UHGV virus genome: UHGV-0121640
Source of the DNA: a virus
DNA length: 13,294 bases
Reading direction: 5' to 3' (one strand)
Translations under genes and position numbers: made by a program
The notes under the pieces: model-generated
The model's input: only the letters and a program-made list of their open reading frames with translations
The model's database searches: none
What the model was told of the DNA's origin: nothing
Part shown: in pieces, positions 2,128 through 12,348 of the stretch
Layout of the letters: every line of letters begins with the position of its first letter
How positions within the stretch are numbered: position 1 is the first letter of the stretch

Positions 2128-2982
2128 ATGTTACTTAACTGGCAGGGACGCCATTTCATGGAAATAAATCACTCACGAATAACATCGTACGAGATTGCGG
2201 ATTACATGATCCGCACTAAATCTCTTCTATCAGCGAAAGAACTCGCAGCAATTCTTGAAAAGGAATACCCGCATCTGGATGTCGATAAGCGCGATGTTTA
2301 TCTGCGCTTAAAGGCTATCGCTGTGTCTAAGTATTCGTCTGTTTTGATTGATGACAGTACGTGTATTCGCCTGGTGCAGGAAATGCGCGATCAGCAAAAA
2401 GACGATGATGAAGGTACTCCGCCTGAATACCGTATCGCGAGCATGCTAAACAGCTGTTCCGCGCAGATAAGCAGCCTGATCAACACCATTTACAGCATCC
2501 GGAATAACTATCGAAAAGAAAGCCGGGAGGCGGAAAAGCACGCTTTGTCTATGGGGCAAGCTGGCATTGTTAAGCTGGCATACGAACGAAAGCGTGAAAA
2601 TAACTGGTCAGTGCTGGAAGCAGCTGAATTCATCGAGGCGCATGGTGGGAAAGTTCCGCCCCTGATGCTGGAGCAAATCAAAGCCGATCTGCGTGCTCCT
2701 AAGACCAATACCGATGACGAGGAAAACCAAACAGCATCTGGCGCTCCATCCCTTGAAGATCTGGATAAAATCGCACGAGAACGGGCCGCCAGCCGCCGCG
2801 CTGATGCCGCATTGTGGATTGAGCATCGTAGAGAAGAAATTGCCGGTATCGTCGATACAGGTGGTTATGGTGATGTCGATGCGGAAGGCATATCAAACGA
2901 AGCATGGCTTGAACAGGAGCTGGACGAAGACGAGGAGGAAGACGAAGAAGTTACCCGCAAACTGTACGGGGATGATGATTAA
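2128..2982 (+). CDS. Hypothetical 284-aa protein with strongly acidic C-terminal tail (DEDEEEDEE); operator-controlled; possibly a late-gene activator (Lpa-like) or terminase small-subunit-like protein
   Basis: Long ORF with coding-like composition; no Walker A; no P1 pac-type TGATCA hexamer cluster inside. Function not assignable from sequence. Confidence 0.6.
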
Positions 2983-3934
2983 TGGCCAGAAGTTGCGTAA
3001 CCGCATCTTATTACTGTCACAGCCTACACGCCCAAGCGGCTATTTCTACGATACACACCATAAACTGGCCAAGCGTCCTGGTAACCCAGATGGCGTTTAT
3101 ACGGCGATCACGCTTAACAGTGAGGAATCACCGCTGGTAACGCCAGAATTTATCAAAATGAAGCTGGCGGAGTACGGCGGGCGTGATAACCCTATGTACA
3201 TGATTAAGGTACGCGGCCTATTCCCTAAATCACAGGACGGATTCCTTCTTGGACGTGATGAGGTTGAACGTGCGACGCGGCGGAAAGTCAAGATTGCCAA
3301 AGGATGGGGCTGGCTTGCATGTGTGGACGTTGCTGGTGGTACAGGACGGGATAAGTCCGTTATCAATATCATGATGGTGTCCGGCCAGCGAAATAAACGC
3401 CGTGTAATCAACTATCGAATGCTGGAATACACAGACGTTACAGAAACGCAGCTTGCCGCCAAAATTTTCGCAGAATGTAATCCTGAGCGATTCCCCAATA
3501 TCACCATAGCGATAGACGGCGATGGCCTGGGTAAAGCAACGGCGGATCTGATGTACGAGTATTATGGTATTACCGTACAGCGCATACGCTGGGGTAAAAA
3601 GATGCATAGCCGTGAAGATAAGAGCCTGTACTTTGATAAGCGTGCTTATGCCAATGTTCAAGCCGCAGAGGCCGTAAAATCTGGTCGTATGAGACTGGAT
3701 AAGGGTAATGAAACTATTGAGGAAGCGTCGAAAATCCCTGTAGGGATTAACTCCGCAGGTCAATGGCGGGTGATGACTAAGGAAGACATGAAGAAAAAGC
3801 TCAACCTGCACTCACCAGACCATTGGGATACATATTGTTTCGCTATGCTGGCGGATTATGTTCCCCAGGATGAGGTGCTAAGCGTCGAAGACGAAGCGCA
3901 GGTTGATGAAGCTCTGGCATGGCTTAATGAATAA
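2972..3934 (+). CDS. Terminase large subunit-like protein, C-terminal RNase H-fold nuclease half only (about 320 aa); no Walker A/B ATPase motifs; start uncertain (ATG 2972 or 2975)
   Basis: Motifs LLLSQP (ATPase motif III-like), [41 protein letters not shown] resemble acidic catalytic motifs of terminase nuclease domains. The upstream 2693-2971 extension in the track looks non-coding (overlaps 2128 ORF in another frame). Confidence 0.5.
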
Positions 3935-3937
3935 ATA

Positions 3938-3954
3938 CTTGCTCTAATAAATTG
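3938..3954 (+). promoter_or_regulatory. C1 operator-like site CTTGCTCTAATAAATTG (15/17), overlapping a possible promoter (-35 TTGTGA 3952-3957, -10 TACATT 3975-3980)
   Basis: Direct sequence match; position analogous to the operator controlling the immI promoter in P1 (recalled). Confidence 0.5.
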
Positions 3955-4085
3955 TGATTTTTGACTGCCGATGTTACATTGAACCTGACATCTTGCGCCT
4001 TGAGGCATTTTCGGTTTATGCTTATCAGGCACCTCATTAAAACGGGTGCCGGGATTGAGACCCCGGATAATGCAAAAGGCGACAC

Positions 4086-4109
4086 AGACGCCAAAAGCGT
4101 CTTTTTTTT
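4086..4109 (+). terminator. Rho-independent terminator: stem AGACGC / GCGTCT, loop CAAAA, followed by T8
   Basis: Hairpin plus U-run read directly at 4086-4109. Confidence 0.6.
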
Positions 4110-4159
4110 GTGTCATGCCATCGCACAGCCATACGTAGCGTTTAGCTCAGAGATCAATG

Positions 4160-4238
4160 GTAGTGCTGGCTGGGCTGCCGAAAGGCAGGCCGGTTCCCTT
4201 TTGCGCCGGTAGTCTCAACCCAGTCAGTGCTACCGCCA
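4160..4238 (+). ncRNA. Candidate c4-like antisense RNA: about 77-nt three-way-junction (tRNA-like) structure; boundaries approximate
   Basis: 13-bp closing stem 4162-4174 / 4219-4231 (3 G-U), internal hairpins CTGCC-GAAA-GGCAG (4175-4188) and 4190-4209, single-stranded GTCTCAA (4212-4218) complementary to TTGAGAC at 4055-4061 and 4241-4253; GGCAGGCC complementary with one bulge to GGCTGCC just after the downstream SD. By analogy to P1 c4 (RNase P-processed antisense RNA). Confidence 0.3.
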
Positions 4239-4294
4239 TTGAGATTGAGACCTCACGCGGTAGCTCCTTAAATTAGCAAAAGGAGGCTGCCATT

Positions 4295-4516
4295 GTGGCT
4301 ACTATCCCTACCCCTGCTCATCCTGAATTTATCTGGCGCTTTTACTCCTGCCAAAAACGTCACTATCACTTCGTTATTGCACCGACAGAAGATGAGGCAC
4401 GTTCTCAGCTTCCTGACGCCCCATGTATTTTCTCTGCCCGTTTTTCCACTGATTCACGCAATTCTCTCAGTTACTGGTGCCTCCCTGTTAACGCTTCTGC
4501 TCAGGAGGGACTATGA
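4295..4516 (+). CDS. 73-aa small protein, GTG start, translationally coupled to the antirepressor (ATGA overlap); icd-like position in an immI-type operon
   Basis: Strong SD AAAGGAGG (4279-4286) 8 nt before GTG 4295; stop TGA 4514-4516 overlaps ATG 4513. Size matches recalled P1 Icd (73 aa); sequence identity not verified. Confidence 0.5.
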   Translation: MATIPTPAHPEFIWRFYSCQKRHYHFVIAPTEDEARSQLPDAPCIFSARFSTDSRNSLSYWCLPVNASAQEGL

Positions 4517-5625
4517 GAACATCGTTAGTTACCCGTGAAGAGATGATCGAGGCAATTGAACAGCACACTGCCTGTATCAGTACCAGGGATATACCTGGCG
4601 TTATTGCCAACTACTTCATGATCACCAAACAACTTTACCGGAGAAAGGACAAACACGCGGTTCACCGCATTCTGCTAACCGATATCCGAGAATACCTGCT
4701 CGAACAGGGTCATCTGAATTACGCAACCGTCGCAGCCGAAGCACGCAAGGAGGCACACAGAATGAAAGCAACTAACGTTAAATCAGAAAAAATTTATGCA
4801 CCTTCAGTTCAGGAATCGGAACTGGTGGTTGTTCAGAATCAGCCGGATGAAATTCCCGTTCTGGAATGGCAGGGAGTACGTGTCGTGACAACCGAAACTC
4901 TTGCTAGAGGGTATGGGGTCGATGAAGCCAATATTCGCAACAATTTGTCTCGCAACCTTGACCGCTTTGAAGAAGGTAAGCATTACTTTCTTCTAACTGG
5001 TTTAAAATTAAGAGAATTTAAGAACAGAGTAACTGGAAGTTACTCTGTTGGTAAGAACGCCAGAAGCCTTACACTCTGGACAGAGCGCGGCGCTGCACGC
5101 ATGTCTAAGATCGTGGACACAAATGAAGCATGGGCATTCTTTGAAAAACTGGAAGACAGCTACTTCCGACAAAAAGAACAGCAACCGGTTGCAATCCCCC
5201 AAACATTACCAGAAGCCCTACGCCTGGCTGCCGAACTGGCTGAACAAAAGCAGCTTCTGGAACAGAAAGCCCACCAGCTAAATCAGCAGCTGGTGGCCGC
5301 CGCTCCTAAGGTCGATTTTGCCGACCGGGTATCAGTAGCTAAAGGGATCCTGATTGGGAATTTTGCAAAGGTTGTTGGACTTAAGCAAAACGCGCTGTTT
5401 GCCTGGTTACGGGAGAACGGCATCCTGATAGCGTCCGGTGGACGTAAAAATGTGCCGTTCCAGCAGTACATCAACGCGGGGTATTTCACGGTGAAAGAAG
5501 TGGTGCTGGATGATGAAAATGGCTACCAGATACGGCTGACGCCCCAATTAACGGGTAAAGGCCAGCAGTGGTTGACGCGTAAACTGCTCGATGCTGGCTT
5601 GTTAAAACCGGTGGCGGCTGAATAA
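4513..5625 (+). CDS. ant: Phage antirepressor, N-terminal ORF6N-type and C-terminal KilAC-type domains (370 aa); nested in-frame internal start at 4762 (287 aa) with its own SD, Ant1/Ant2-like
   Basis: ORF6N-like stretch LEWQGVRVVTTETLARGYGVDEANIRNNLSRNLDRFEEGKHYFLLTGLKLREF; KilAC-like stretch VSVAKGILIGNFAKVVGLKQNALFAWLRENGIL...QQYINAGYF; SD AAGGAGG (4747-4753) before ATG 4762. Sizes fit recalled P1 Ant1/Ant2 (42/32 kDa). Confidence 0.75.
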   Translation: MRTSLVTREEMIEAIEQHTACISTRDIPGVIANYFMITKQLYRRKDKHAVHRILLTDIREYLLEQGHLNYATVAAEARKEAHRMKATNVKSEKIYAPSVQESELVVVQNQPDEIPVLEWQGVRVVTTETLARGYGVDEANIRNNLSRNLDRFEEGKHYFLLTGLKLREFKNRVTGSYSVGKNARSLTLWTERGAARMSKIVDTNEAWAFFEKLEDSYFRQKEQQPVAIPQTLPEALRLAAELAEQKQLLEQKAHQLNQQLVAAAPKVDFADRVSVAKGILIGNFAKVVGLKQNALFAWLRENGILIASGGRKNVPFQQYINAGYFTVKEVVLDDENGYQIRLTPQLTGKGQQWLTRKLLDAGLLKPVAAE

Positions 5626-5657: not shown

Positions 5658-6509
5658 TTATTGCGCGCTTTCGGGGTTGTCGTTTACTGGCTGCCCCTTC
5701 TTGGTTTTACGGCTGCGCGTAACTGATGCGGCTGACTTAACCTTTTTCTCTTCGCGAGTGATGGCAATTTGTTTTTTTACATTTTCAATATCTGCCAGGC
5801 GATATATTTTTGCTTGCGGCCAGCGGTCGCAGATGATCGGTTCTATGGAGTCATAAAGGCTAAATTTTGCTTTTTCGAATTCACCGTTGATGATAATTCC
5901 ATCACGGAGAGTTTCATCGCAGATAAACACGCCACACAGTGGCACATGGTAACTCACTGATTTACCATCATTGTAGTTAGGGCTACTGGAAATGTAGTGG
6001 ACGCGCAGCATTGTTTCGCTAAAGCCGTGTACGCGCATACGGAATTTTTCATCCTCCGGGTACTGCTTCATTAGCTCTTTTGTTGCTTCCAGGTTCTCTA
6101 TGTATTTCGCACTGTGCTCATTGATCCCCGCGCTTTTCTGGATGCGAATGTCCTTATCAATCAGATGAATAATGCGGCCAGCGGTCATGTTGACGCTGTT
6201 CACAGCTTCTGTCTGATAAGTCGTAACCTTACGCACACCGCGAAGGATGTTAGGCACTGGATATAAAATAGTCTTTGGGATATTGAGGTCTGGGTACTGT
6301 TCCAGTTCCCGCGCCATTAAAGTCCATTTATCAATTTCAGCCTGAATGCTGTCAGTTTCTTTGAACGGTAGAACGACAACCGGGCGTACAGGACGACCGT
6401 CGCTGGCTGTATCAACGTGTTGGGCGCGTGCAACAGCTTTTTTTAGAAAGAGATCCCTGAAGCTGACGAACTCCTGGTACAGTTGTTCGCCGTAGACATA
6501 ATTTATCAT
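5658..6509 (-). CDS. c1: C1 repressor of lysis (primary immunity repressor, immC), 283 aa
   Basis: Translation MINYVYGEQLYQEFVSFRDLFLKKAVARAQHVD...NDNPESAQ matches P1 C1 as recalled; strong SD (GGAGGAGG on minus strand) 5 nt before ATG. Confidence 0.93.
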   Translation of the reverse strand: MINYVYGEQLYQEFVSFRDLFLKKAVARAQHVDTASDGRPVRPVVVLPFKETDSIQAEIDKWTLMARELEQYPDLNIPKTILYPVPNILRGVRKVTTYQTEAVNSVNMTAGRIIHLIDKDIRIQKSAGINEHSAKYIENLEATKELMKQYPEDEKFRMRVHGFSETMLRVHYISSSPNYNDGKSVSYHVPLCGVFICDETLRDGIIINGEFEKAKFSLYDSIEPIICDRWPQAKIYRLADIENVKKQIAITREEKKVKSAASVTRSRKTKKGQPVNDNPESAQ

Positions 6510-10055: not shown

Positions 10056-10697
10056 ATGGATAAGAAAATATGCGTTGTTTCGATGAGCGTCGGCAAACCG
10101 GCGTCAATGACTGCTGCATGGATCAACAATGAGCTAATAATGGCTGAGCGGACCAGCTACCCTGAACGCCGTCGCGATATGGAACTCCAGCTGCTGCGCG
10201 AATTGCGAGAAAAAGAGGAAAAGGGTTTTATCGTGCTGGTGGAAGAGGAAAACAGCTTTATTACTGGTCGAGTTGGCCAGCGTGTAAGGTTGCGCGATCC
10301 CTTCATGAACGGCAGGCCGGTACTAATTGAGGCAATGCAGATTTATAAGGAGCTGGAACGCCAGAAAGCAATCAAGTTACCGCGCAAGGAATCCGGCAAA
10401 TACATCCTCCACCAAAGCATCTTCGATTCCGAACACGACAAAAAAGGCGATGAATTTTTCAACATCAACTGGAGCGAAATAACGACAGAGCATGTTCTGA
10501 CGTTACTATGTTGCTTTGCGACGGAATACAACAACGTTGCCAGCGCAGACTACATCAGGGCAATGGCTGGAGAAGTTGAGGCACGCCAGGAACCATCGTT
10601 ACTAAGCCCTCTGATTAACATAATTCGCGGAACCCAAACGCTGGCACAAAAACAGGTGCCTAAGGGAGTATTAACAGGAAAAGGAAATTATCTATAA
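10056..10697 (+). CDS. Hypothetical 213-aa protein in the position of P1 mat (particle maturation); track start 9909 (GTG) probably too far upstream
   Basis: ATG 10056 has SD AGGGGG 5 nt upstream; N-terminal extension from 9909 is hydrophobic and low-complexity and contains a terminator-like hairpin. Confidence 0.5.
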   Translation: MDKKICVVSMSVGKPASMTAAWINNELIMAERTSYPERRRDMELQLLRELREKEEKGFIVLVEEENSFITGRVGQRVRLRDPFMNGRPVLIEAMQIYKELERQKAIKLPRKESGKYILHQSIFDSEHDKKGDEFFNINWSEITTEHVLTLLCCFATEYNNVASADYIRAMAGEVEARQEPSLLSPLINIIRGTQTLAQKQVPKGVLTGKGNYL

Positions 10698-10753
10698 ACG
10701 TCAATGCATTAGGGTATACTTCTCCGTAGAACTATAAGTAAATGGAGTAAGTA

Positions 10754-12058
10754 ATGAGCGAGTATATAGAAATTGCCTATGCAGCAGCTACACATAGGCT
10801 GTGCTTTCTTACAGGCACTGGATTTTCAAAGGCTGTTTCTGATGATAAAGCCCCAAGTTGGCAATCTTTATTGGAGCAACTGTGCGGTTTATTGAAGGAT
10901 GGTGACTCACTCAAAGAGGAATTATTTCCTGATGGAAAAGCAAAAGACCTTAGCCTTGAAGAGGCTGCTCAGGTTATTGCACTAAAATTTATACTTTCGG
11001 GGAAAAATATTTACCAGGAGATTGAGAAAATCATAGCCTCAATCGAACTTGATCCATCAATTGAATATATTCAAGACTTTTTCAAAGAAAACACATTTAA
11101 AGTAATTACGACAAATTATGACAAGTTAGCAGAAAAACTGGCTGGAGAGAATCGAACGTGTACAATCACCCCCGGCCTGCCAATTCCAAAATATAATTGT
11201 GAGGTTAAAGTCTACCATGTTCACGGCTCTATAGACTCCCCATCAGATATGGTTGTTACTAGCGAGGATTATTTCAGATTTATAAATGGTAATTCTTACT
11301 TTTCAAATAAACTAAGCACAGTTCTACATGAAAACACTATTGTTATTCTTGGCTATTCTCTAAGTGACGCGAACCTCAAGGCGATTATAAATGAATATAA
11401 GGTATTTTCACGGGACAACGTAATGTCCTCCAATATTTTCCTTATTTCCCGAGGGAAACTATTGCAACCTATTAAAGATTACTATTTTTCCTGCTTTGGG
11501 ATTAGGGTTATAGATAAAACAGAGGTGTCTGATTTCTTTAGAAAACTTAACAAGAAAATTCCAGAAGCAAAAAAAATAAAAGACAAATTGAGGCACTCAA
11601 TCAAATCGGTAATAAAAAACGGAAGAGAGTATAAAATAGAGTTCTTGAAGTTAGAGGATTCTTTTTATCATATCATTTCCTCCATTTCATCATCTGGATA
11701 TAGCTGGAATGATGAAAAGGTATTAAATGTTTTTTGTGATATAATAGATAAAAAAATAGATCTTACTAAAGAGTCTGGCGCATGGGAGCAGTATGAACAC
11801 CTGGCAAAATGGCTTATTTATTTCGGTAGTTTATTTGAAGTAAAAGGAACCAACTTTGAGAAAAAATACATACATGCGGTTGAACACTCAATGACTTATA
11901 TGAATAAACCTTACGAAACAGGCTACTCATGGCGAGCATATCTAGCCTGGAAAACAAAATGGCCTTCACTGACAGCATCTAACCGCTCTCTTATTAAGAG
12001 TAAGATGGAAGAAATCCCGCTACAACAGATTCACGATATTATATCTAAGTTTATATAG
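10754..12058 (+). CDS. SIR2-family (sirtuin-like, DHS-like NAD-binding fold) protein, 434 aa: N-terminal predicted NADase domain + unassigned C-terminal domain of about 180 aa; candidate defense effector
   Basis: Motif series FLTGTGFS, TTNYDKLAEK, YHVHGS, VILGYSLSDANL in the order and spacing seen in ThsA/DSR-type SIR2 domains; SD GGAG 7 nt before ATG; gene visibly AT-rich versus flanks. Confidence 0.8.
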   Translation: MSEYIEIAYAAATHRLCFLTGTGFSKAVSDDKAPSWQSLLEQLCGLLKDGDSLKEELFPDGKAKDLSLEEAAQVIALKFILSGKNIYQEIEKIIASIELDPSIEYIQDFFKENTFKVITTNYDKLAEKLAGENRTCTITPGLPIPKYNCEVKVYHVHGSIDSPSDMVVTSEDYFRFINGNSYFSNKLSTVLHENTIVILGYSLSDANLKAIINEYKVFSRDNVMSSNIFLISRGKLLQPIKDYYFSCFGIRVIDKTEVSDFFRKLNKKIPEAKKIKDKLRHSIKSVIKNGREYKIEFLKLEDSFYHIISSISSSGYSWNDEKVLNVFCDIIDKKIDLTKESGAWEQYEHLAKWLIYFGSLFEVKGTNFEKKYIHAVEHSMTYMNKPYETGYSWRAYLAWKTKWPSLTASNRSLIKSKMEEIPLQQIHDIISKFI

Positions 12059-12066
12059 TATATTTA

Positions 12067-12095
12067 TCTCCGGCCTAATCTCCCTAGGCCGGAGA
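12067..12095. terminator. Hairpin TCTCCGGCC-taatctcccta-GGCCGGAGA between convergent SIR2-like gene and lxc-like gene; possible bidirectional terminator
   Basis: 9-bp perfect stem read directly; downstream TTCTT on the plus strand. Confidence 0.45.
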
Positions 12096-12099
12096 GTTC

Positions 12100-12348
12100 T
12101 TAATCAGCATTCAGGAGCAATGCGTTATCTATGATGATCTGCTCCCATTCCTCGAATGCCCGATCGCGGACGCCCTGGGGAACGCTGTTAGTTTTGAAAT
12201 CGACGACCGTCCGCCATTTTCCGTCCGGACGGTACATGCGCAGAGCTTTACTTCCCCCTTCCCTGCGCACCTCAACGTTATGCTTGTCAGCAAACTCTTG
12301 TAATGCTCGTAGCGTCCCATGCTTTACTGTGTAGTATCGCTTTTTCAA
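12100..12348 (-). CDS. 82-aa protein, TTG start overlapping upstream stop (TTGA); lxc/bof-like position (C1 corepressor) by synteny
   Basis: ORF in track; size and position match recalled P1 lxc (bof); sequence identity not verified. Confidence 0.45.
   Translation of the reverse strand: MKKRYYTVKHGTLRALQEFADKHNVEVRREGGSKALRMYRPDGKWRTVVDFKTNSVPQGVRDRAFEEWEQIIIDNALLLNAD

Follow-up and report, generated by a model that had tools for sequence, protein, structure and literature searches.

An IsrK-type leader RNA, probably a c4 target mimic, in a second antirepressor cassette of P1-like plasmid prophages

Described IsrK and c4 systems

The closest described counterpart of the RNA studied here is IsrK of the lambdoid prophage Gifsy-1 (RF01394; Hershko-Shalev et al. 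2016, PMC4825925), a stable, Hfq-associated RNA according to its Rfam description. The Gifsy-1 isrK promoter drives transcription of the antirepressor gene anrP; transcription either stops at the IsrK terminator or continues into an antirepressor mRNA that is translationally silent (PMC4825925). Supplied in trans, short IsrK increased anrP translation 139-fold; the G28A and G31A mutants were inactive in trans, and G28A/C162U and G31A/C159U were compensatory pairs (PMC4825925). The authors ascribed trans-activation to remodeling of the long mRNA around 'orf45', not to titration of a processed c4, and co-expression of the c4-containing segment raised toxicity instead of lowering it (PMC4825925), a rise that is not obviously predicted by a simple sponge model. 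The same study placed a stable processed RNA, STnc1160, at the c4 position and drew a comparison with P4 seqA/CI, with c4 itself left unnamed (PMC4825925). In the later reviews among the papers that could be searched, IsrK and c4 are still handled apart.

The second point of reference is the immI region of phages P1 and P7. Biere, Citron and Schuster reportedly found in 1992 that P1 c4 is processed from the operon transcript and that translational repression of icd is coupled to Rho-dependent termination before ant. Repression of icd-ant by P1 c4 acts through a2/b2 (P1 annotation; review). The a1/b1 sites 5' of c4 in P1/P7 immI go back to Citron and Schuster (1990), as cited in a review. Our comparison with P1 is based on its GenBank annotation, which gives the order Oc4/Op51, P2c4 (formerly P51a, its -35 overlapping the operator), P1c4 (formerly P51b), "putative a1", "b1 target site for C4 RNA", c4, a2, b2, and icd.

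Two more distant systems share parts of this logic. In the seqA-CI-seqC region of P4, a processed antisense RNA is flanked on both sides by copies of its own targets within the same transcript, as in our locus. There, pairing reportedly ends transcription prematurely and thereby maintains immunity, and the IsrK authors regard seqA as a structural homologue of IsrK (PMC4825925); unlike P4, both our locus and Gifsy-1 have an upstream copy with an intrinsic terminator of its own, which can be released separately. AgvB of EHEC Sp5 is a phage target-mimic RNA that titrates the host core-genome sRNA GcvB (review). The likeness lies in a small phage RNA imitating the target of another small RNA and relieving repression; the difference is that in our locus the mimic and the antisense RNA share a promoter and would act on the phage's own antirepressor.

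The pacB–c1 cassette and its leader

The stretch of DNA analyzed here (13,294 nt; UHGV virus genome UHGV-0121640; hereafter the window) is a P1-like plasmid prophage of the RCS47/JL22 type. Over positions 3700–4700 its identity is 94%–97% with phages JL22 and RCS47 and 98% with many E. coli plasmids, and 684 out of 5,426 complete E. coli genomes have a match. The cassette of interest lies between pacB and c1, downstream from the late operon lpa-pacA-pacB (pacB stop codon at 3934); the insertion in RCS47-type plasmids was described earlier as "two short hypothetical orfs and ant" (PMC6906374). Since a canonical P1/P7-type immI is also present elsewhere in RCS47, JL22, and D6, the pacB–c1 cassette is an additional antirepressor cassette and has a specificity of its own. 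P1-like plasmids of the RCS47/JL22 type, which frequently carry resistance genes in E. coli, hold a second antirepressor switch beside c1.

An Rfam covariance-model scan returned a full-length isrK match (RF01394) at 4029–4107 (59.0 bits, gathering threshold 50, E = 9e-11; model positions 1–77 of 77). As aligned by cmscan, the element consists of a 5' hairpin, a CGGGAUU-loop-CCCG hairpin, and a U-tailed terminator, and these three hairpins are also found in the minimum free energy (MFE) fold of 4029–4110. The score for c4-a1b1 (RF03163) fell below gathering (22.3 vs. 46.7 bits, E = 0.002, at 4016–4069), and the element is therefore filed under isrK. The structural hallmark of c4-a1b1 is nevertheless present: two segments 5' of c4 that are complementary to a' and b' and repeat a2 and b2. 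RF03163 scores 51 bits in P1 and 48 in Gifsy-1 against 22 in the window, whose sequence is too diverged from P1 for this model. The P1 leader matches c4-a1b1 and not isrK, and the two matches overlap in Gifsy-1; the two families are therefore one element described from different seeds. The tandem isrK–C4 pair also occurs in RCS47, D6, a Stx2 phage, and Gifsy-1.

Judged by its sequence, the leader belongs to a class of phage small RNA that has been described before, IsrK/c4-a1b1, and finding it is a rediscovery and no new system: the family is curated, one of its members has been characterized, and the P1 record already annotates the a1/b1 sites. A modest advance is the demonstration that isrK, c4-a1b1, and "orf45/STnc1160" form one module. 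We think it likely that this second immI (antirepressor) cassette, which is of P1 type, is controlled by positions 3938–4114 as its leader and that the short RNA serves as a c4 target mimic. For annotation purposes, 3938–4300 is an RNA control module (IsrK-type leader plus c4) and not the "hypothetical" and "Ash family" proteins called by pipelines. The features of the cassette are collected in Table 1.

Table 1. Features of the cassette, in window coordinates
Feature	Position	Strand	Basis
C1 repressor operator CTTGCTCTAATAAATTG, homologue of P1 Op51/Oc4	3938..3954	+	2 mismatches to P1 operator consensus
Upstream promoter: TTGTGA, 17 nt, TACATT	3952..3980	+	Homologue of P1 P2c4/P51a
Putative proximal promoter: TTGCGC, 18 nt, TATGCT; predicted start ~4029	3993..4022	+	Homologue of P1c4/P51b and of the Gifsy-1 isrK promoter
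IsrK-type small RNA / a1b1 leader (hairpin 1, a1 hairpin, b1, terminator)	4029..4109	+	RF01394
a1 hairpin, loop mimicking c4 target a2	4049..4066	+	Complementarity, fold, covariation
b1 site GCAAAAGG, mimic of c4 target b2	4072..4079	+	Complementarity to c4 loop
Clamp helix GACAC (4081–4085) / GUGUC (4110–4114) around terminator and U-run	4081..4114	+	Covarying helix
Intrinsic terminator: 6-bp stem, 5-nt loop, U8	4086..4109	+	Terminator scan
c4 antisense RNA gene	4153..4240	+	Rfam RF01695, 75 bits, gathering 45
True c4 targets a2 ATTGAGAC (4244–4251) and b2 GCAAAAGG (4276–4283)	4244..4283	+	Read from sequence
icd-like gene	4295..4516	+	Host cell division inhibitor Icd-like protein in 98%-identical plasmids
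Antirepressor gene, ORF6N and ANT/KilAC domains	4513..5625	+	Pfam PF03374 (2e-31), PF10543 (2.5e-18)
c1	5658–6509	-	Adjoins cassette

The cassette is collinear with P1/P7 immI (Op51-P51a-P51b-a1-b1-c4-a2-b2-icd-ant) at nearly equal spacing, and it has the layout of a P1-type immI: an operator over the upstream promoter, followed in one direction by c4, icd, and the antirepressor gene. The placement of the operator relative to the promoters and a1 agrees with the P1 annotation, as does the order of a2 and b2. P1 C1-operator-like sites number seven in the window, against 0.09 expected. At the downstream end, b2 overlaps the icd Shine-Dalgarno sequence AGGAGG (4281–4286), and the start of the antirepressor gene overlaps the icd stop.

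The comparison with Gifsy-1 is equally close. Both loci have the same three hairpins, including the CGGGAUU...CCCG loop hairpin and the U-tailed terminator, both have a C4-family RNA plus an antirepressor gene downstream, and in both the loop is complementary to c4; the promoter directly 5' of Gifsy-1 isrK has a promoter-like counterpart in the window. They differ in the loop itself (UUGAGAC in the window, UUGGCGU in Gifsy-1), in what lies between c4 and the antirepressor gene (icd in the window; in Gifsy-1, 'orf45' extends from the c4 5' end to the anrP start), and in the match of the proximal promoter to consensus (7/12 vs. 11/12). The window also has a second, C1-operated promoter upstream, and its host element is a P1-like plasmid and not a lambdoid prophage.

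The window equivalent of Gifsy-1 "orf45" is the ORF at 4157–4276, called "ash family protein" by PGAP. The Ash family takes its name from the P4 region. Its Pfam model (Phage_ASH) matches this ORF, that is, the translation of the window c4 gene. Coordinate mapping, in which IsrK numbering was reproduced exactly, likewise puts the first AUG of "orf45" (A107) at the AUGG at the 5' end of the Gifsy-1 c4 gene.

Pairing sites and their covariation

The sequence-only reading of this DNA had singled out a hairpin at 4049–4066 and a terminator at 4086–4109, and a sequence check found both exactly there, the terminator also being returned by a terminator scan. The a1 hairpin comprises CCGGG (4049–4053), the loop ATTGAGAC (4054–4061), and CCCGG (4062–4066); it folds with a 5-bp stem and an 8-nt loop at -8.3 kcal/mol, and the loop has a predicted unpaired probability of 0.99 in the 80-nt RNA. 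The earlier proposal that the loop is complementary to a GTCTCAA element of a downstream structured RNA is borne out: the element lies at 4212–4218 and is the a' segment of c4, with which the loop 7-mer UUGAGAC (4055–4061; repeated at 4245–4251) can pair, and the complement of the full ATTGAGAC is found within c4 at 4212–4219. The hairpin had also been said to carry a third copy of the motif. The motif does recur; exact copies are limited to two (4054 and 4244), and the further copy, ATTGAGAT at 4238, matches at 7/8 positions. With 0.35 exact copies expected, two were reached in eight of 200 shuffles, and the count of motif occurrences with one mismatch in the window is at chance level. These counts being too weak, we used family covariation as evidence instead.

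The second site, b1 (GCAAAAGG), is the exact complement of the c4 loop b' (CCTTTTGC at 4197–4204; as RNA, CCUUUUGC) and is repeated at 4276–4283. Site-level duplexes have predicted energies of -15.5 (a1) and -10.0 kcal/mol (a2) with a', and of -14.7 (b1) and -15.0 kcal/mol (b2) with b', so the leader copies are at least as good partners of c4 as the true targets. Cofolding the whole c4 with IsrK or with the leader brought no net stabilization (ddG -0.2 kcal/mol), owing to the high stability of c4 itself; we therefore take the site-level duplexes as informative on binding and draw no support from the whole-molecule numbers. Pairing would need loop-loop kissing, possibly with Hfq.

To place the site in its family, we assembled 93 distinct isrK-like elements from a pattern scan of viral contigs and from loci already fetched; ~26 chance matches in GC-rich contigs had been filtered out by requiring the element's own complement downstream. 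The control consisted of loops paired with the downstream sequence of other loci. The reverse complement of an element's own a1 7-mer lay at the c4 junction, 72–120 nt past the terminator, in 90/93 (0.7% in mismatched pairs), and a second copy of a1, corresponding to a2, followed ~32 nt further on in 87/93 (2.3% in mismatched pairs). For b1, an exact complement of at least 7 nt in the element's own c4 loop was found in 56 out of 90 (mismatched pairs, 1.8%). There were 15 distinct loop 7-mers, 14 of them among confirmed members (the other, TTTTTTC, is a probable chance match at locus L044). Hairpin 1 showed compensatory changes in three pairs among 79 relatives.

The same covariation of a1/b1 with c4 and with a2/b2 holds for P1/P7, where the P1-type relatives (P1, P7, 813R1, SJ46) covary at all six sites, and the Stx2 phage represents another specificity type, with UUAGGAC/CAAUCGAGG as a1/b1. 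In Gifsy-1, coordinate mapping places G28 and G31 within the loop 7-mer UUGGCGU, and C162 and C159 within ACGCCAA at the junction of the Rfam C4 match; by this mapping the published helix "b-I" is the a1:a' pairing. The 15 loop 7-mers (14 confirmed), covarying across three sites, constitute a natural compensatory-mutation series for the question whether IsrK titrates c4.

Termination, promoters, and the proposed switch

The terminator (AGACGC/CAAAA/GCGTCT at 4086–4102, with the T-run extending to 4109) is modest, with a hairpin of -7.3 kcal/mol and U8, which is compatible with partial read-through. The terminator was missed by RNAalifold on a MAFFT alignment of the family, in which the variable loop was misaligned, and we used a per-sequence stem search instead. 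A T-run of at least five at a fixed offset was present in 90/90 relatives with the c4 signature, 88 of which had a perfect 5–7 bp stem of varying sequence. The clamp helix that encloses terminator and U-run can form only in read-through RNA. It has at least 5 bp in 77/79 relatives, with complementarity kept across at least 10 sequence variants, and it is part of the MFE structure of the read-through RNAs of the window, P1, and Gifsy-1. A terminator-like hairpin with U-run and clamp likewise forms in the fold of the P1 leader; this hairpin has a 12-nt loop and just U5, and, unlike the terminator of the window, it is missed by a simple terminator scan.

Two putative promoters precede the leader. 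A sigma-70 promoter was found at a fixed position in all 92 relatives with enough flanking sequence (at least 9/12 matches to consensus in 67), with a -10 box that ends ~6 nt before isrK model position 1 and mostly 9–11/12 matches. The promoter-like site at the corresponding position of the window, whose -10 ends 6 nt before 4029, is in the weakest class (7/12); that of P1 (P1c4/P51b; TTGACC, 17 nt, TATAGT) matches at 10/12 and that of Gifsy-1 (TTGACA, 18 nt, TATATT) at 11/12. The upstream promoter had been put at 3952–3957 (-35) and 3975–3980 (-10) in the sequence-only reading, overlapped by an operator, and this position holds: it is the homologue of P1 P2c4/P51a (annotated as TTGTAT, 17 nt, TATCTT), and its -35 is overlapped by the operator CTTGCTCTAATAAATTG, although at 8/12 it lies under the cut-off of the promoter scanner. 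Among the 92 relatives examined, the C1 operator and the extra upstream promoter were confined to the P1-like subfamily of the window. With two promoters, two 5' ends are expected from the sequence, at ~4029 (giving an RNA of ~80 nt) and, when C1 is absent, at ~3987 (~122 nt).

These elements suggest the following mechanism. The leader would be fed by the C1-operator-covered upstream promoter (the P51a homologue) and by the weak proximal promoter (the P51b/isrK homologue, starting at ~4029). Its first 80 nt would form an IsrK-family RNA consisting of a 5' hairpin, the hairpin with the UUGAGAC (a1) loop, single-stranded GCAAAAGG (b1), and the terminator. Transcripts from the proximal promoter, or from the C1-controlled one upon loss of C1, would mostly end at 4109 and yield a free small RNA; read-through would produce c4, cut out as an antisense RNA, together with icd and ant. 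c4 would silence icd-ant by pairing of a' and b' with a2 and b2 at the icd ribosome-binding site, which it is expected to block because b2 overlaps AGGAGG. Since a1 and b1 match the targets or improve on them, the short RNA would compete for c4 as a target mimic and favor antirepressor expression, and the terminator would set the amount of c4 and ant mRNA made per initiation. The sequences themselves establish family membership, the anatomy, the covariation of a1/b1 with c4 and with a2/b2, and a terminator kept in every relative with the c4 signature; others, working on homologues, have demonstrated the two isoforms (short and read-through), activation in trans that depends on the a1 loop, and the a1:a' base pairs. 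For this locus we infer which promoters are used, how leaky the terminator is, and that the short RNA acts on c4 as a decoy. That the separately terminated RNA could be a decoy, or its terminator an attenuator, had been suggested from the sequence, and the idea gains support from homology (isrK membership, the Gifsy-1 isoforms, and covariation) and is already known.

The attenuator half of that suggestion deserves to be weighed separately. The leader could act exclusively in cis, as P4 seqA does: c4 pairing with nascent a1/b1 would alter termination at 4086–4109 and autoregulate c4-icd-ant, and the short RNA would be inert. The architecture resembles seqA-CI-seqC, where pairing causes premature termination, and the terminator is universally conserved. 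Moreover, b1 ends 6 nt 5' of the terminator stem, and its 3' GGCG overlaps the clamp and might pair, as GGCG/CGCC, with the 5' arm of the terminator. This candidate antiterminator is, however, just 4 bp long. Gifsy-1 IsrK works in trans from a plasmid, with loop mutants of a1 inactive (PMC4825925), and the stability and Hfq association recorded for IsrK in Rfam do not suit an inert by-product. We therefore regard a purely cis-acting leader as possible and rather unlikely; attenuation in cis is compatible with a decoy role, and both could hold.

The second alternative concerns which RNA is made. The earlier proposal was of a ~120-nt transcript from the operator-overlapped promoter, and one could take this RNA, starting at ~3987 and made only without C1, as the main product. 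The promoter in question is homologous by position to P51a, which was named experimentally in P1, and has a C1 operator over its -35, and the proximal promoter is unusually weak here (7/12). This part of the proposal stands. It had overlooked the proximal promoter conserved throughout the family, which would start here at 4029 and give an RNA of ~80 nt: every other family member starts ~6 nt past the proximal -10 box, at model position 1, and C1 should silence the upstream promoter in a lysogen. The 5' extension is also predicted to pair with a1/b1, which would make the longer RNA a poorer decoy. Its predicted fold stands out by its stability, with z = -4.1 in the window and z = -3.7 in P1, and in the window the extension lowers the predicted accessibility of a1 from 0.99 to 0.46 and of b1 from 0.62 to 0.26. 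In P1, by contrast, predicted accessibility rises with the extension, and compensatory changes that would maintain the pairing were absent in both lineages: in the P1 type, b1 changes against a constant 5' segment, and in the other lineage locus L098 loses the pairs. Masking of a1/b1 by the extension is thus a model prediction and unproven. On balance, we doubt that the 120-nt RNA is the main product.

The target-mimic reading of the short RNA, if extended beyond this locus, would make IsrK RNAs in general dedicated mimics of the targets of the c4 with which they are co-transcribed. The 'IsrK / orf45 / STnc1160' of Gifsy-1 and the 'a1b1 / c4' of P1/P7 would then be one switch, in which the terminator divides initiations between a decoy and c4 plus its target, the clamp marks read-through, and the 'orf45'/Ash ORF is the translated face of the c4 gene. 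We offer this generalization tentatively and would put its chances at a little below even. If IsrK does titrate c4, the literatures on Salmonella IsrK and on P1/P7/P4 antisense immunity merge, and the separate induction circuits of co-resident prophages become easier to explain.

It is very improbable that the terminator is a mere end of the late lpa-pacA-pacB operon and that the hairpins have no regulatory role. It is indeed the first intrinsic terminator past the pacB stop (3934), but the unit of promoter, hairpins, terminator, and c4 recurs in lambdoid and other prophages behind unrelated upstream genes and always with its own promoter, and the family-wide covariation of the loops with c4 already contradicts such a reading. 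That the region instead encodes a small protein we reject almost outright: variation is concentrated in a1/b1 and compensated in c4, a constraint at the RNA level, and Pfam returned no match for either candidate, the ORF at 3961–4212 (plus strand, 83 aa) or that at 3856–4116 (minus strand, 86 aa). Both ORFs are present in a mechanical ORF list, and the one on the minus strand is annotated in D6.

A clamp helix around the IsrK terminator

Directly 5′ of the IsrK terminator stem lie 5–10 nt that pair with the 5–10 nt directly 3′ of its U-run, so that this helix, which we call the clamp, loops out both terminator and U-tract. Only read-through transcripts can form this helix. A clamp of at least 5 bp was found in 77 of the 79 distinct loci, to be read against a mismatched control that is itself high (about half reach at least 5 bp) because the sequences are related. 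Complementarity was maintained across at least 10 sequence variants among these loci, for example, GACAC/GTGTC, CGATAC/GTATCG, GCGCAT/ATGCGT, and GAGCGATATG/CATATCGTTT. The clamp falls outside both Rfam models.

The P1 leader contains a terminator-like hairpin with a predicted fold of ACCGCA-12 nt-UGCGGU followed by AUUUUUG, flanked by the clamp CGGACA/UGUCCG. This hairpin is absent from the features annotated in the GenBank record of P1, and a simple terminator scan did not call it, owing to a loop longer than 8 nt. It is kept in P7, SJ46, 813R1, and the second D6 cassette.

Features of the window and of related loci (L003, P1 locus; L006, Gifsy-1 locus)
Feature	Record	Position	Strand	Basis or remark
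Clamp helix	window	4081-4085 with 4110-4114	+	pairing of terminator flanks
Clamp helix, P1 copy	L003	12283-12315		
Clamp helix, Gifsy-1 copy	L006	34271-34231		
Terminator-like hairpin of P1 leader	L003	12283-12315 (P1 48282-48314)		between b1 and c4; predicted fold
5′ segment with a1-b1 pairing region	window	3988-4084		predicted fold
5′ segment with a1-b1 pairing region, P1	L003	12191-12306		predicted fold
39-codon ORF, "ash family protein"	window	4157-4276		PGAP name; Pfam Phage_ASH, 29 bits
c4-icd-ant cassettes	RCS47	52685-53023; 103312-103676		
c4-icd-ant cassettes	JL22	43320-43659; 96314-96678		
c4-icd-ant cassettes	D6	20908-21177; 75173-75486		
Six further C1 operator-like 17-mers	window	2041, 6604, 7068, 7151, 8713, 9189		1-3 mismatches
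SIR2-like domain protein	window	10754-12058		434 aa
Region with lpa/pacA/pacB gaps	window	2128-3140		comparison with L001
lpa′-′pacA fusion ORF	window	2128-2982		left by missing DNA; Pfam BPP1_LPA N-terminal half only

In transcripts from the C1-controlled upstream promoter, folding predictions pair an additional 5′ segment with the a1-b1 region (window, z = −4.1; P1, z = −3.7). The sequences used for this pairing differ between the window and P1 lineages, and no compensatory changes were found in either. With the 5′ segment included, the predicted accessibility of a1 and b1 went down in the window and up in P1.

Cassettes, specificity types, and the c4 reading frame

The P1-like phages RCS47, JL22, and D6 each have two c4-icd-ant cassettes, of which one belongs to the P1/P7 type and the other, like that of the window, to the isrK type. 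Two isrK-c4 units, differing in their a1 or b1 types, were likewise observed in each of the viral contigs L045 and L091. The many combinations of a1 types with b1 types that occur suggest modular exchange of specificity segments.

The "ash family protein" named by PGAP is the translated c4 RNA gene and corresponds to the published "orf45" of Gifsy-1, in which the AUG forms the 5′ end of c4.

Other regions of the window

A P1-type immunity network would be expected to have C1 operators around its c1/coi regulatory region as well as upstream of lpa and of ref, and the six further C1 operator-like sites are grouped at these places.

Two stretches of L001, a plasmid 98% identical to the window, are missing from the window: one of 875 bp, comprising the 3′ half of lpa and ∼570 bp of 5′ pacA, and one of 532 bp close to the pacB 5′ end. 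These losses account for the fusion ORF and for a frameshifted pacB, and point either to a prophage defective in packaging or to an artefact of the assembly. Positions 10691-12102 did not align with L001, which has a RelA/SpoT-domain protein in place of the SIR2-like domain protein; this segment may be a variable defence-gene slot of P1-like plasmids.
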